From positions 1-32,000 of the forward strand of contig JAJRVL010000005.1 of the NCBI GenBank assembly GCA_024277355.1: a stretch of 32,000 nt of DNA, written 5' to 3'. A program made the position numbers and the translations under genes. The stretch is from an archaeon (GTDB lineage: Archaea; Iainarchaeota; Iainarchaeia; Iainarchaeales; 1-14-0-10-31-34). This document shows, one piece after another, positions 1 to 24,299 of the stretch (positions within the stretch are counted from its first letter, which is position 1; each line of letters begins with the position of its first letter). The notes beneath the pieces are model-generated. The model made no database searches, was not told where the DNA came from, and was given only the letters and a program-made list of their open reading frames with translations.

Positions 1-323
1 AGGACAATGTAGACATTGAGGAATTTTTAAACAATCTTGATGTAGAAGAAGAAACAATGGTTGAAGATGCAGATGCTTATGTTAAACCAGTTTCTTTATT
101 AAACGATGAAGATACAACTATGGCAATAGATGAATTAAGAAAAGGAAACATTCTTTTGTTGAATATTGGAGACATGTCAAAAAGAAATGCAATTAAATTA
201 AGGGAAATGGTTAAGAGCATTAAAGGCGTTGTAGACGAAATTAACGGGGACATTGCAAGAATTTCAACTGAAAGAATTTTAGTTACTCCGTCAAAAGTTA
301 AAATTATTAAAAGAAAAGAATAG
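1..323 (+). CDS. sepF: Cell division protein SepF-like, 5' end truncated by window edge
   Basis: Frame 3 is open from position 3 with no stop before the track Met at 57, so the gene probably starts upstream of the window. The sequence KPVSLLNDEDTTMAIDELRKGNILLLNIGDM...INGDIARISTERILVTPSKVKI fits the SepF/DUF552 C-terminal domain pattern. Stop is TAG at 321-323. Confidence 0.7.
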   Translation, partial: DNVDIEEFLNNLDVEEETMVEDADAYVKPVSLLNDEDTTMAIDELRKGNILLLNIGDMSKRNAIKLREMVKSIKGVVDEINGDIARISTERILVTPSKVKIIKRKE

Positions 324-332
324 TTCTTTTAT

Positions 333-18562: not shown

Positions 18563-19681
18563 CTATTTAAACACTTTTTTGAATTTTTTGAAAAAACCAT
18601 TGTCTTCTTTTTCTTCTTGTTTTATTTCTTCAAACAATTCTTTTTGTTTTCTTGAAAGCTTTTCAGGAGTTCTTACAATTACTTTAATGTATTCATCTCC
18701 AAAACCGCCTCTTTCAATGTCTTTAATTCCTTTTCCTTTTAATCTAAAAATAGTTCCAGTCTGGGTTCCTGCAGGAATCTTTAATTTTCCTTTTTCTTTT
18801 AATGTTGGAATTTCAATTTCTCCTCCTAAAGCTGCAGTTGAAAAATTAATTGGAACTTCTCCATAAATATCTGTCTGGTCTCTTTTGAAAAATTTATGCG
18901 GTTCAATAAAAATAATTACATATAAGTCTCCGTTTCCTGCGCCTCTTTCTCCTGCATTTCCTTCTCCTTGTAATCTTAAATAAGCTCCATTTTGGATTCC
19001 TTCAGGAATTCTTACTTCAATTTTTCTTTTTTTCTTTATTCTTCCTGTTCCATGGCATTTACTGCATGGGTTTTTTACTGTTTTTCCTTCTCCTCCACAT
19101 TTTCTGCAGGTTGTTTTTGTAGTAAAAGTTCCAAAAGGCGTTCTTTGGGCATGAGTCTGCATTCCTGTTCCATTACATTGACTACAGTCAATTAAACCAT
19201 CTTTTTCTTCTGAACCTGTTCCATTGCATTTATCACAGGCTTCAATTCTTTCTATTTCAATTTCTTTTTTTATTCCAAATACTGCTTCTTCAAATCCAAT
19301 ATTTAAATCAAACCTTAAATCAACTCCTTTTCTTGGACCTCTTTTTTTTCCTCTTCCTCCAAAAATATTTCCAAAACCAAAACTTGAAAACAAGTCATCA
19401 AAATCCATATTAGAAAAATCAAATCCTCCTGTTCCTTGTCCTCCAAATCCCTGAAAGCCTTCAGCTGCGTGCCCAAACTGATCATAATTAGATTTTTTTT
19501 GTTCATCGCTTAAAACAGAATAAGCTTCTAATATTTCTTTGAATTTTTCTTCAGCATGTTCTTCTTTAGATATATCTGGATGAAATTTTTTTGCCATTTT
19601 TTTGTAAGCAGATTTAATTTCGTCAGCTGAAGCTCCTTTATTCAACCCTAAAATTTCATAGTAATCTCTTTTTGTGGTCAT
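18563..19681 (-). CDS. dnaJ: Chaperone DnaJ (Hsp40, type I)
   Basis: J domain with KKFHPD, a G/F-rich linker and four CxxCxGxG repeats (CDKCNGTG, CSQCNGTG, CRKCGGEG, CSKCHGTG). Confidence 0.97.
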   Translation of the reverse strand: MTTKRDYYEILGLNKGASADEIKSAYKKMAKKFHPDISKEEHAEEKFKEILEAYSVLSDEQKKSNYDQFGHAAEGFQGFGGQGTGGFDFSNMDFDDLFSSFGFGNIFGGRGKKRGPRKGVDLRFDLNIGFEEAVFGIKKEIEIERIEACDKCNGTGSEEKDGLIDCSQCNGTGMQTHAQRTPFGTFTTKTTCRKCGGEGKTVKNPCSKCHGTGRIKKKRKIEVRIPEGIQNGAYLRLQGEGNAGERGAGNGDLYVIIFIEPHKFFKRDQTDIYGEVPINFSTAALGGEIEIPTLKEKGKLKIPAGTQTGTIFRLKGKGIKDIERGGFGDEYIKVIVRTPEKLSRKQKELFEEIKQEEKEDNGFFKKFKKVFK

Positions 19682-19783: not shown

Positions 19784-21682
19784 TTACTTTTTATCTTCTT
19801 TTTTGTCTTTTTCAACTTTATAGTCTGCGTCAACAACTTTTTCGTCTTTTGATTTATCTTTGTTTTCTGTCTGGTTTGTGCCTGTATTTCCTTGAGTTTC
19901 TGTTTGTCCTTTAGCCTGTTGCTCTTGTGCTGCTTTTTGGTATAATTCAGTTGAAGCTTCCTGAAATAATTTATTTACTTCATCTAATTTTGTTTTGATT
20001 GCTGTAACATCTTTTTGTTCTGGTTCCATTAATTTTTTTAGTTCAGCTGTTTTGTCTTTTATTCCCTGAATTTTTTTTGCATCAACTTTTCCTTCCATTT
20101 CTTTCAAAGTTTTTTCTGTTTGATATACAACTGCGTCTGCCTGGTTTATTATGTCAATTTCTTCTTTTTTCTTTTTGTCTGTTTCAGCAAATTGTTCTGC
20201 TTCTTTTTTCATTTTTTCAATGTCTTCTTCTTTTAATTTTTCTGAAGCAACAATTGAAATTTTCTGGCTTTTTCCTGTTCCCATATCTTTTGCTGTTACA
20301 TGCACTATTCCGTTTGCATCAATATCAAAGGTAACTTCAATTTGAGGTATTCCACGAGGTGCCGGAGGGATTCCAATTAACTGAAATCTTCCTAAAGTTT
20401 TGTTATCTGAAGCCATTGCTCTTTCTCCCTGCAATACATGAATATCAACTGCTGTTTGATTTTCTGCTGCAGTAGAAAAAATCTGGCTTTTTTTTGTTGG
20501 AATAGTTGTATTTCTTTCAATTAATTTAGTAAAAACACTTCCTAAAGTTTCAATTCCTAAACTTAATGGAGTTACATCTAAAAGCAAAATATCTTTTACT
20601 TCTCCTGATAAAACTCCTGCCTGAATTGCTGCACCCATTGCAACACATTCCATTGGGTCAACGCCTCTTTCAACTTTTTTTCCAACAATTTTTTCTACAA
20701 ATTCATGGACTATAGGCATTCTTGTCGGGCCTCCAACTAAAACAACTCTGTGAATGTCATTTGGAGTTAATTTTGCGTCAGCTAAAGCCTGATTAACAGG
20801 CTTTTCACATTTTTCAACAATTGGTTTAACTAATTCTTCAATTTTAGCTCTGTTTAATTTCATTACTAAATGTTTTGGTCCTTCTTTTGTTGCAGTAATA
20901 TAAGGCAGATTAATTTCGGTTTCAATTACATTAGATAATTCAATTTTTGCTTTTTCTGCTGATTCATTTAATCTCTGCAAAGCCATTTTATCTTGAGTTA
21001 AATCTACTCCGTCTGTTTTCTTGAATTCAGCTATAATAAAATCAGTTAACACTTTATCCATGTCTCTTCCGCCTAATTGAGTGTTTCCTGAAGTTGACTT
21101 AACTTCAAATACTCCGTCGCCGAAATCCATTATAGTTACATCTAATGTTCCTCCGCCAAAATCAAAAACCAAAATTTTCTGGTCTTTTTCTTTTTTATCT
21201 AAACCATAAGCTAAGGATGCGGCTGTTGGTTCATTAACTATTCTGATTACATCTAATCCTGCAATTTTTCCTGCGTCTTTTGTTGCCTGTCTTTGATTGT
21301 CATCAAAGTAAGCCGGAACTGTAATCACTGCTTTTTCTACTTTTTCTCCTAAAAAGCTTTCTGCATCTTTTTTTATTTTCTGCAAAATAAAAGCTGAAAT
21401 CTGCTGAGGAGTGTATTCTTTTCCATAAACTTTAAATTTTTCTGTTGTTCCCATTTTTCTTTTTGCACCGGTAATTGTTCCTTCTGGATTGCTTATTGCT
21501 TGTCTTTTTGCTGGTTCTCCAACTAACATTTGCCCGTCTTTAGTAAAAGCTACAATTGAAGGAAATGCTTTTCCATATAAACTTGCTCCTTCAGCTGAAG
21601 AAATTATTTTTGGTTTTCCTCCTTCTAATACTGCTGCTGCAGAATTTGAAGTTCCTAAATCTATTCCGATTATCTTACTCAT
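19784..21682 (-). CDS. dnaK: Chaperone DnaK (Hsp70)
   Basis: [28 protein letters not shown] and a complete substrate-binding domain; 632 aa. GGTGAT lies 4 nt upstream of the ATG. Confidence 0.98.
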
Positions 21683-21696
21683 TTTATCACCTTTTT

Positions 21697-21831
21697 TTAA
21701 TTAGCATAAATTTGCTTTCTTAATCTCTTTTCTTCTTCATTTAAGTTTGGTTTAGCTTTATCTGGGATTTCTTCTGGAAACTCCTCAAAATCTTCTGGGC
21801 CAAATTCTTCATTCAATTTTTTTTCATTCAT
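21697..21831 (-). CDS. Unannotated 44-aa acidic small ORF between grpE and dnaK
   Basis: Hand translation gives [44 protein letters not shown] then TAA. The ATG (21831-21829) lies inside the last codons of grpE. The stop is directly upstream of the dnaK GGTGAT site. It is below the track length cutoff. Confidence 0.45.
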
Positions 21832-22336
21832 TTTTTTCACTCTCTATTGAATTAATTTTAACTTTTGAATGCCTTAACACTTTGTCATTTAACATAAATC
21901 CTTTTTGAAATTCCTCTAAAATAATTTCATCTTGTTTTTCTGAATTATTTTCTTTTAGTAAGCATTCATGGAATTCCGGATTAAATTTTTTTCCAAGTGA
22001 ATTAATTTCTTTTAAACCATATTTTTCTAAAACTTCAGTTAATTGTTTTTTAATTAATTCAAGTCCTTTAATTGTTTCTGGATTCCCGTTTTTTTCAGCA
22101 GAATCAATTGAATCAAGTATTGGAAGCAAGGATTTAATTAATTCAGCATTACTAAATTCAGCAAAATGTTTTCTGTCTTTTTCTTCTCTTTTCTTAAAAT
22201 TTTCAAATTCTGCCTGAATTCTTTTAACTAATTCAGTTAATTCTTCTATTTTAGCTTGTTTTAAGTCTTTATTTGCTGTTTCTTCTTTTTCTTTTCTTTC
22301 TTTTTTTATGTGTTTATGTCCAATCAAATTAATCAC
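21824..22336 (-). CDS. grpE: Nucleotide exchange factor GrpE
   Basis: Coiled-coil N-terminus (LVKRIQAEFENFKKREEKD), LLPILDSIDSA, FNPEFHECL and a C-terminal beta domain ending KVLRHSKVKI. There is no ATG in the first ~140 codons. The start is GTG 22336 or TTG 22327. Confidence 0.9.
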   Translation of the reverse strand: MINLIGHKHIKKERKEKEETANKDLKQAKIEELTELVKRIQAEFENFKKREEKDRKHFAEFSNAELIKSLLPILDSIDSAEKNGNPETIKGLELIKKQLTEVLEKYGLKEINSLGKKFNPEFHECLLKENNSEKQDEIILEEFQKGFMLNDKVLRHSKVKINSIESEKNE

Positions 22337-22410: not shown

Positions 22411-22905
22411 ATGGAAGAAAATGAAAGAAAACTAATTGCATTTAATCATAGATTTCAGTTAACAGGAAAAATTCATATTCCTGCTGCTACTAAGCATAGA
22501 TTTCAGGTTATAATAAGAAAAGTTGAACAGCCTTTTTCAACGCAAGCAGATGAAGAATTTAATTGGTTGTTAGAGTGTTTAGGCTTTTTTGAGCCTATAG
22601 ATAAAGGAAAAACAGCTGCTTTAGTGTTTAAGGAATTAGTTAAAGCCACTGAGAGTGGAAGATTATTAACTTCAACTGAATTAGCTGAAAGAGTCGGTAT
22701 GAGCAGAGGAGCAGTAATTAATCATTTAAATAATCTTCAAAGATCTGGCCTTGTATTAAAGGAAGGAAGCAGATATATGTCCAGAAGCAAGTCAATGTTT
22801 CGCATGATTAAAGAATTACAGGATGAAATTAATTTAGTTTTTAAAAGAATGGAACAAACTGCAAAGGAATTAGACCAAGAAATGGGCTTGTTTTTAAAGG
22901 ATTAA
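22411..22905 (+). CDS. Winged-helix (ArsR/TrmB-like) transcriptional regulator, divergent from grpE-dnaK-dnaJ
   Basis: The HTH segment LTSTELAERVGMSRGAVINHLNNLQRSGLVLKEG is followed by a helical tail. The track starts at TTG 22393. I prefer ATG 22411 (MEENERK...). Confidence 0.6.
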   Translation: MEENERKLIAFNHRFQLTGKIHIPAATKHRFQVIIRKVEQPFSTQADEEFNWLLECLGFFEPIDKGKTAALVFKELVKATESGRLLTSTELAERVGMSRGAVINHLNNLQRSGLVLKEGSRYMSRSKSMFRMIKELQDEINLVFKRMEQTAKELDQEMGLFLKD

Positions 22906-24299
22906 ACTCTTTTAAATTTTGACTGAAAATGCCTTAAGATTGGACTTTCAAATTCAAATTTTAATCCTTTGATTTTGTCTTTTCTTTCCTTTATGTTTTT
23001 CATTGCTTCAATAATATAATCCATATGTTCTTTCAGATAAACTCTTCTTGGAATAGTCAACCTCATTAAATCCATTTCAGGCATTTTATCTTTTCCTGTT
23101 TTTGGATCTCTTCCAGCTAATAATGTTCCTATTTCTACTGCTCTAATTCCTGCTTCAATATAAAGTTCAGTGCAAAGTGTATGTGAAGGAAATTGTTCTT
23201 GCGGAATATGAGCCAAAAATTTTTTGCCGTCAACAAAAACTGCATGACCTCCAATTGGTTTCATTATTGGAATTCCAATTTTATTTAATTCTTCTCCTAA
23301 ATATTTAACTTGTCCAATTCTGTATTTTAAATAGTCTTCTTGTATTCCTTCTTTTAATCCAACTGCAATTGCTTCTAAATCTCTTCCGGCTAATCCTCCA
23401 TAAGTTGGAAAACCTTCAAATAAAATTCCAAAAGGAATGCTTTTTTCATAAAGTTCTTTTTCTTTAAATGCAATTAATCCGCCAATATTAACTATTGCAT
23501 CTTTTTTTGCGCTCATTGTGCATCCATCAGCATAAGAAAACATTTCTAAAACAATTTCTGAAATTGATTTATTTTCAAAACCTTTTTCTCTTTGTTTAAT
23601 GAAAAAAGCATTTTCTGCAAATCTTGCTGCATCAATAAAAAAATAAACTTCAAACTTTTTGCATAACTCGCTTGTTTTTTTTATGTTTTCCATTGAAACC
23701 GGCTGGCCTCCTCCGGAATTACAAGTAATTGTATGCAGAACATAACCTATATTTCCTTTATTTTTTTATAAAACTTCTTCTAATTTTTTTAAATCAATAT
23801 TTCCTTTAAATGGAAGTTCTTTTTCACAGTCAAATGCTTCTTTTATTACACAATTAACAGGAATTCCTTTTTTGTGCTCAATATGGGCTGTTGTTGTGTC
23901 AAAATGAATGTTTCCAGGAATTATGTTTCCTTCTTTTATTAAAACTGCATCTAATATGTGTTCTGCTGCTCTTCCCTGATGTACAGGCAGAACAAAATCA
24001 AATCCAATTACATCTTTAACTGAATTTTTAAAGTTATCAAAACTTTTTGCTCCGGCATAACTTTCATCTGCTTTAATCATTGCAGACCATTGCTCCTGAG
24101 ACATTGCATTTGTTCCTGAATCAGTTAATAAATCAATAAAAATTTCATTTGATTTAAGCAAAAAAATATTTAAGCCTGCTTTTTCTATTGCTTTAATTCT
24201 TTTTTCTTTTGAAATTAGTTTTATTGGTTCAATGCTTTTAATTTTAAAATTCGGAATAATATAATTCAATTTTTCACAACCCTGCTTTTTTTTAAACAT
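22902..24299 (-). pseudogene. Tryptophanase/tyrosine phenol-lyase family (beta-eliminating lyase) gene interrupted by one in-frame TAA
   Basis: Track ORFs 23766-24299 (N-terminal part: FIDLLTDSGTNAMS, PVHQGRAAE) and 22902-23693 (C-terminal part: DAARFAENAFFIKQRE, PLP-lysine motif MSAKKDA, FPTYGGLAG, LRLTIPRRVY) are in the same frame. The 72 nt between them translate as KNKGNIGYVLHTITCNSGGGQPVS, which is the expected conserved segment. The only defect is TAA at 23766-23768. Confidence 0.85.

Follow-up and report, generated by a model that had tools for sequence, protein, structure and literature searches.

The solved enzymes with which the gene described here can be compared are tryptophanases (TnaA; 1ax4, 2c44/2oqx, and 8sbg) and tyrosine phenol-lyases (TPL; 2ez1 and 1tpl). 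TPL carries Thr and Phe at the positions where TnaA has the Asp of the xFDTT motif and the His of the LRHF motif. Homologs of TnaA in DPANN archaea have earlier been noted as possible indole producers (PMC7567580). Stop codons that interrupt conserved genes of draft genomes and MAGs have likewise been described, and inflated counts of internal stops were found to track assembly error (Cooley and Wright, 2024; PMC11017572). Artefacts of the C>A/G>T type driven by 8-oxoguanine (8-oxoG) have also been described (Costello et al., 2013; PMC3616734).

The locus studied here lies in a window of 32,000 nucleotides that opens contig C3 of an archaeal genome assembly (G000; 1.13 Mb in 11 contigs, the longest of 527 kb, with 28% G+C). 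It was compared with five genomes of the same genus (G001–G005, referred to as congeners). Many of the tRNA genes of this assembly are intron-bearing. The window contains the complete frame of a gene of the tryptophanase family, tnaA, which is broken at codon 178 by an in-frame TAA (Table 1).

Table 1. Positions in the window of the tnaA frame, its internal landmarks, its neighbors, and the contig-end copy of sepF.
Feature	Position	Strand	Remark
sepF, 3' part, at contig end	1..324	+	Reverse-complement duplicate at C9:1-324, 322/324 identical
dnaJ	18563-19681		Conserved neighborhood of tnaA
dnaK	19784-21682		Conserved neighborhood of tnaA
grpE	21824-22336		Conserved neighborhood of tnaA
Winged-helix (wHTH) regulator, convergent with tnaA	22393..22905	+	Part of the conserved neighborhood
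tnaA, complete frame (tryptophanase-family, TnaA-like, PLP-dependent beta-eliminating lyase)	22902..24299	-	465 codons + TAA terminator
SAKKD motif	23499..23513	-	Aligns with the msakkd stretch of solved tryptophanases
24 sense codons (KNKGNIGYVLHTITCNSGGGQPVS), from the TAA to the first downstream ATG	23694..23765	-	Conserved core segment
In-frame TAA, codon 178	23766..23768	-	GAA (Glu) in 4/4 gene-bearing congeners

A sequence-only reading of the window had proposed that two open reading frames called in this region belong to one gene, and this was confirmed. The frames of 177 aa (23766..24299) and 263 aa (22902..23693) are in phase, with the TAA as the sole break between them, and the codons of the minus strand around it read ...GAA GAA GTT TTA TAA AAA AAT AAA GGA AAT ATA GGT TAT GTT CTG CAT ACA ATT ACT TGT AAT TCC GGA GGA GGC CAG CCG GTT TCA ATG.... 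No frameshift and no second stop were found in the tnaA frame by codon-by-codon reading and full-length alignment, and the 72 nt which appear "intergenic" between the two frames are indeed coding. The SAKKD motif also lies where it had been placed, in the downstream part of the gene (residues 263–267), and the stretch around it, MSAKKDAIVN (residues 262–271), aligns with msakkd of the solved tryptophanases. Its second Lys (23502–23504) is the residue that we take to bind PLP, going by E. coli TnaA. Judged by the starts of the orthologs, the true start of the gene may be the TTG at 24267–24269.

Joined across the TAA, the frame aligns end-to-end with solved tryptophanases and tyrosine phenol-lyases (E 1e-130 to 1e-153) with no gap at the stop, a match which is far above chance. 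For solved tryptophanases, 8sbg and 1ax4 among those matched end-to-end, E was 1e-150 or better. The two pieces cover positions 1–117 and 128–286 of the PF01212 (Beta_elim_lyase) profile with 85.8 and 163.7 bits (cut-off 27). On the tryptophanase profile NF009709 they cover positions 5–169 and 175–461 with 234.6 and 440.2 bits (cut-off 285), scored separately, so that only the C-terminal piece is above the cut-off alone. Sums of separately scored pieces stayed below the equivalog cut-offs, at ~625 for NF053783 (cut-off 750) and 562 for TIGR02617 (826), both TnaA profiles, and at 570 for the TPL profile TIGR02618 (721). The C-terminal 132 aa gave 139–153 bits with seven of the eight solved tryptophanases and 110 bits with the remaining one (8sij), while the scores with TPL (122–128 bits) were below most of those with TnaA. 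Like the solved tryptophanases and TPL, the window frame is alignable over its full length and possesses the SAKKD lysine motif, and its HFDTT and LRHF motifs agree with those of the solved tryptophanases, although its identity to the characterized TnaA/TPL enzymes is only ~50–55%. Judged on these sequence comparisons, the enzyme belongs to the tryptophanase family and is probably TnaA-like. The window copy lacks an uninterrupted frame, which the congener genes possess.

Uninterrupted orthologs of tnaA, 80–85% identical to the window copy, occur in four of the five congeners, and all four share the gene order zinc-ribbon, small ORFs, membrane protein, tnaA, wHTH, grpE, and dnaK. As the gene is intact and syntenic in these four genomes, it is old in the genus and is no recent import. 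The suggestion that it is a horizontally acquired accessory gene therefore stands only in part: its distribution is patchy (13 of 61 genomes of the order), but within the genus it is old and syntenic, with no recent acquisition. It is an ordinary gene that this small, AT-rich archaeon inherited vertically. The best public homolog is 85% identical, the nearest homologs carry the labels Micrarchaeota or Nanoarchaeota, which together with the intron-bearing tRNA genes marks the archaeon as one of the DPANN type, and the nearest relatives outside DPANN are of Clostridia type with ~60% identity. Neither a second copy nor an alternative allele was found in the assembly or in public protein collections, and the two tnaA fragments themselves were found in the public collections searched solely on the window contig.

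The presence of GAA at codon 178 in all four gene-bearing congeners identifies the stop as a single substitution, G-to-T when read along the gene and C-to-A when read along the plus strand of the window. In the ortholog alignment, each of the 13 closest sequences has a sense codon at this site, mostly for Glu, and none has a stop; among the ten closest database orthologs the residue is Glu in nine and Gln in one. It varies among distant homologs (E/Q/K/D/S/R/V), and codon 178 is a tolerant position of surface type. The rest of the gene has the appearance of a maintained one. Where 21 other homologs all agree, the window copy never departs from them, and at genus-invariant columns it has two private changes (0–14 in the sister genes), and its terminal branch in the maximum-likelihood tree is 0.10 (0.03 to 0.19 in the sisters). 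The single lesion, the absence of private changes at invariant sites, and the normal branch length do not fit a classical decaying pseudogene. Such a pseudogene is in fact present in a related DPANN genus, where G008 carries tnaA of the same family and in the same gene order as in the window, with at least four stops and frame breaks; the copy of G057 has also decayed. Segments have been lost from both of these copies, unlike that of the window, which shows one lesion and no acceleration of rate.

The interruption of tnaA is not an isolated event in this assembly. Using a filtered reciprocal tblastn of G000 against the 1.155 Mb of congener G003, it was possible to identify ~18 clean and ~7 probable single in-frame stops in G000 (766 orthologs, 243,000 aligned residues), the counts of each class depending on the filters against antisense shadow ORFs and upstream extensions. 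The reciprocal screen found no clean internal stop among 788 orthologs of G003, and samples of G004 and G005 had none in 227 orthologs (71,000 residues). Genes of G000 with such stops include those for GluRS, ProRS, NrdD, PdxS, PurM, DXR, Dcd, SepF, RtcA, and Ham1 ITPase, the first four of which are single-copy in the assembly, each bearing a stop.

The spectrum of these events is narrow. Relative to the congener codon, at least 11 are GAA to TAA, five are GGA or GGG to TGA, three are TCA to TAA, and three are AAA to TAA, with a few others needing two steps. Changes of the G:C-to-T:A type account for 13 of 14 events in a strict set (p = 8e-7) and 18 of 21 in a broad set (p = 7e-8), where 28% would be expected by codon usage, and there are no G:C-to-A:T transitions among the stop events. 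The stops are distributed uniformly along the genes (KS p = 0.59). Since essential and accessory genes are equally affected, and at any position along the gene, the lesions have not been filtered by selection. Frameshift junctions are also more numerous in G000 (~8, vs. ~2 in G003), and most of these occur at A/T runs of 6–10. When the missense differences between G000 and G003 within conserved blocks were tested for a general G-to-T excess, the counts were 164 vs. 152 and 173 vs. 171, a comparison in which the expected signal of ~15 is below the noise.

For one of these stops, the sense version lies at the beginning of the window itself. The copies of sepF at the ends of contigs C3 and C9 represent a single locus, based on synteny with G003. 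At both sites where they differ, C3 has G and C9 has T, giving GAA vs. TAA and AGG vs. ATG. The corresponding residues in G003 are Glu and Arg. The nonsense event is at the GAA/TAA site, and its sense and stop versions are both present in one assembly. Two further contig ends overlap inexactly, those of C9 and C11 (345 bp), with a C/A difference in tRNA-Phe and a T8/T9 indel, and those of C2 and C7 (339 bp), with an A/G difference and an A8/A9 indel. Three of the four substitutions in contig-end overlaps are thus of the G:C/T:A type. For the C/A difference in tRNA-Phe, the congeners do not show which base is ancestral. Both types of gene-breaking lesion that occur genome-wide are visible here as heterogeneity within the assembly. 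The remaining contig-end overlaps are exact 141-mers, which suggests a de Bruijn assembly with k = 141 in which arms of unresolved bubbles were left.

It is probable, in our assessment, that the TAA of tnaA is an unselected lesion or variant which was carried into the consensus, as one of this genome-wide set. Three options had been offered from the sequence for the stop: that it is a nonsense mutation of very recent date, that it is an artefact of the assembly or of a population variant, or that it is read through in a programmed way. The first two survive, while the third is unsupported. The artefact or variant option gains most, because G-to-T stops are found in ~20–25 genes of G000 and in none of three congeners, and it gains again from sepF being present with and without its stop in one assembly. 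An origin in the data would be more likely than one in the living lineage. If the library was made from little DNA or was strongly amplified, oxidized guanine (damage of the 8-oxoG type), or some other source of G-to-T errors, could have left errors on damaged templates, and amplification of few molecules could have carried these into the consensus. Arms of unresolved variant "bubbles" that the assembler would have kept in its contigs point to an origin in the data too. We infer this origin by damage and amplification, and also that the tnaA site would behave as the sepF site does. In the organism, the enzyme would then probably be made intact, with Glu at position 178.

The likeness of G000 to the described assemblies with spurious stops (PMC11017572) is considerable, with a count far above that of relatives, conserved genes, some of them essential, that are each affected by a single substitution in an otherwise perfect frame, frameshifts mostly at homopolymer runs, and unmerged variant contig ends. 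It differs from them in the unusual purity of its spectrum (~90% G:C-to-T:A) and in the interior position of its stops on long contigs, for which low coverage by itself is a poor explanation. The dominance of G-to-T/C-to-A changes without transitions is shared with the signature of 8-oxoguanine, whether this arises as an artefact of library preparation (PMC3616734) or in vivo from deficient GO repair, in mutators of the MutY/MutM/MutT type. However, library artefacts of this kind are normally low-fraction calls, whereas the stops of G000 are consensus bases. Standing against an origin in the data is the position of the tnaA stop in the interior of a 109-kb contig of a contiguous assembly. As random per-read errors should lose the consensus at decent coverage, T must be the prevailing allele among the reads at this place, and such dominance needs either a jackpot from few amplified templates or a real allele. 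A bias in read orientation is the hallmark of the 8-oxoG library artefact.

A real allele is the core of the main competing explanation, which holds that the tnaA stop is a genuine and very young nonsense mutation. This is possible, if rather unlikely. According to it, many recent G:C-to-T:A mutations would have arisen in the lineage, in a sizeable sub-population, or in some copies of a polyploid genome. Oxidative stress, or poor repair of 8-oxoG, would have caused them while drift was strong, and tnaA would have been hit only lately and be turning into a pseudogene like those of related genera. The gene is dispensable, having truly decayed in G008, where synteny is kept, and in G057, and its T allele is in a contig interior. 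The two linked T alleles of the sepF bubble represent a haplotype abundant enough to escape popping, and 28% G+C fits a long-term G:C-to-A:T/T:A pressure. A glycosylase of the HhH-GPD type which is found in G002, G003, and G004 is moreover absent from the syntenic site in G000. However, this protein is MagIII/EndoIII-like and no 8-oxoG enzyme, and it was not found in G001 and G005 either, where tnaA is intact, leaving a mutator through loss of 8-oxoG repair unsupported. The AGOG profile had no match in any genome, control genomes included, so that its silence in G000 says nothing about repair, and G000 showed no clear loss of any specific gene for 8-oxoG repair. No viable cell could have fixed null alleles of GluRS, ProRS, NrdD, and PdxS, all single-copy, at the same time, the uniform placing of the stops carries no signal of selection, and the homopolymer indels that co-occur with them look technical. 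The broader version, in which all of the stops are real in a living DPANN lineage, would call for a burst of the 8-oxoG type leaving at least two dozen fresh nonsense alleles, some in essential genes, and for survival through heterozygous genome copies (by polyploidy or by complementation across the population) or through leaky termination, and we regard it as improbable. Leaky termination could conceivably be linked to the release factor aRF1, which needs the splicing of a 503-aa intein from inside its catalytic GGQS motif.

That same intein is one of the points which might favor programmed or tolerated readthrough, in which the TAA would be decoded often enough, perhaps through weak termination, for the full-length tryptophanase and other interrupted proteins to be made. 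The tnaA frame is perfectly kept with a fully conserved downstream part, position 178 accepts many residues among homologs, and essential genes bear stops too. Yet the aRF1 intein has no defect and is one of the common self-splicing kind, the stop is conserved in none of 13 close orthologs, and the sepF locus occurs with and without its stop. TAA is the terminator of 66% of long ORFs in G000 (TAA 676, TGA 264, and TAG 84 of 1024) and of tnaA itself. No suppressor tRNA was found among the 37 tRNAs of G000, and the idea of a structured RNA downstream failed, as a stretch of 116 nt that begins a little before the stop folds no better than shuffled sequences (z = -0.93). The stops align to codons for Glu, Gly, Ser, and Lys, as single G-to-T/C-to-A steps predict and a decoding rule would not. 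A change of the genetic code is rejected on the same alignment and on the role of TAA as main terminator. Readthrough in either form is very improbable, and the programmed form at the tnaA TAA is essentially excluded. Least credible of all is a functionally split enzyme, in which activity would come from the association of the 177-aa N-terminal part with a C-terminal part made by a restart. Neither part is damaged, and translation from the nearest in-frame start downstream, the ATG at 23693, would give the 263-aa product with the PLP lysine. The restart would, however, drop 24 codons including the conserved core segment TITCNSGGGQPVS, and it is for this loss that the split enzyme is rejected. 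No in-frame ATG, GTG, or TTG occurs between the stop and 23693, and no relative is split at this point.

The most likely reading of the tnaA stop is therefore an ordinary one, an artefact or an unselected variant, with no mechanism behind it. As a caution, neither the loss of a gene nor readthrough or recoding should be deduced from this "pseudogene". When metabolism is reconstructed from G000, its 20-odd single-stop genes should be treated, those for GluRS, ProRS, NrdD, PdxS, and PurM included, as probably intact, and a nearly pure G:C-to-T:A spectrum of the kind seen here is a useful diagnostic of data damage. If the alleles are real, they would instead show, as is seldom seen, oxidative mutations of an uncultured episymbiotic archaeon before selection has filtered them. 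For the family, the comparison presents the tryptophanase-type lyase as a stable, syntenic component of this genus beside grpE-dnaK-dnaJ, and as a gene which is decaying in neighboring genera.

Single in-frame stops were found genome-wide in the source assembly (G000), with approximately 18–25 conserved genes carrying one each, and approximately 90% of these stops originate from G:C-to-T:A changes. No such single stops were found in three congeners of the same genus, the screen being reciprocal and whole-genome against G003 and confined to samples for G004 and G005. Conserved genes of G000 also contain approximately eight frameshift-like junctions, compared to approximately two in G003, with most of those in G000 situated at A/T homopolymers of 6–10.

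Coordinates of the features discussed, by genome, contig and position
Feature	Location	Strand	Remark
gltX stop	G000 C3:38261
proS stop	G000 C2:246414
nrdD stop	G000 C2:410824
pdxS stop	G000 C2:184470
purM stop	G000 C2:266863
dxr stop	G000 C9:81912
dcd stop	G000 C3:108693
rtcA stop	G000 C11:58238
Frameshift-like junctions	G000 C2:84818, C2:419450, C9:12840, C2:287110, C2:166810, C11:94830, C11:16445		and others
Second HhH-GPD glycosylase	G003:C4:34140-34871		compared with G000 C2:~287,100-287,600
aRF1 gene	G000 C2:439997-442717	+	outside window
aRF1 intein	G000 C2:440528-442036	+	outside window
DXR	G000 C9:~80,900-82,010	+
Decayed tnaA remnant L013	G008:C5:46806-47796
Decayed tnaA remnants L014/L018	G057:C71

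The contig ends provide a further view of the data. The sepF locus is retained twice in G000, at window positions 1–324 (the end of contig C3) and at positions 1–324 of contig C9, also a contig end. These copies are identical at 322 of 324 positions and differ by two G/T substitutions, one of which is GAA vs TAA. The twin ends show that two haplotypes or error arms are present within the data, and C9 and C3 should be merged at sepF in the order rc(C9) to C3. Contig C8 (11,425 bp) carries an identical 141-bp sequence at both its ends, which also terminates contig C11; C8 may be a circular or repeated element, the alternative being a junction formed by repeat collapse.

One gene-content difference concerns a second HhH-GPD glycosylase, MagIII/EndoIII-like and with an Fe-S cysteine cluster at its C-terminal end, which is present in congeners G002, G003 and G004 and absent at the syntenic site in G000. 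The gene adjoining this empty site is also frameshifted, at a T7 run.

The peptide-chain release factor aRF1 of G000 contains an intact intein of 503 aa, with CLSPETL at its start and VHN at its end, followed by Ser, for which Pfam identified Intein_splicing, two LAGLIDADG_3 domains and one HTH_3 domain. It is inserted exactly at the Q/S junction of the catalytic GGQS motif, and aRF1 of G003 is without the insert. A full-text literature search combining "intein" and "aRF1" turned up no publication on this topic. G000 also encodes a full copy of the MEP-pathway enzyme DXP reductoisomerase (DXR), which is conserved within the genus; its presence is unexpected because archaea normally use the mevalonate route.

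For the tryptophanase-family gene tnaA, the annotated ATG (24299; region 24267–24299) adds approximately 10 residues that are absent from orthologues, and the TTG at 24267–24269 is the better match to orthologue starts. Truly decayed remnants of tnaA, with multiple stops, frame breaks and missing segments, occur in G008 and G057, genomes of related genera, with G008 retaining the order memb197 (a membrane-protein gene)–tnaA–wHTH–grpE. From these remnants, tnaA is therefore undergoing loss in the sister genera.
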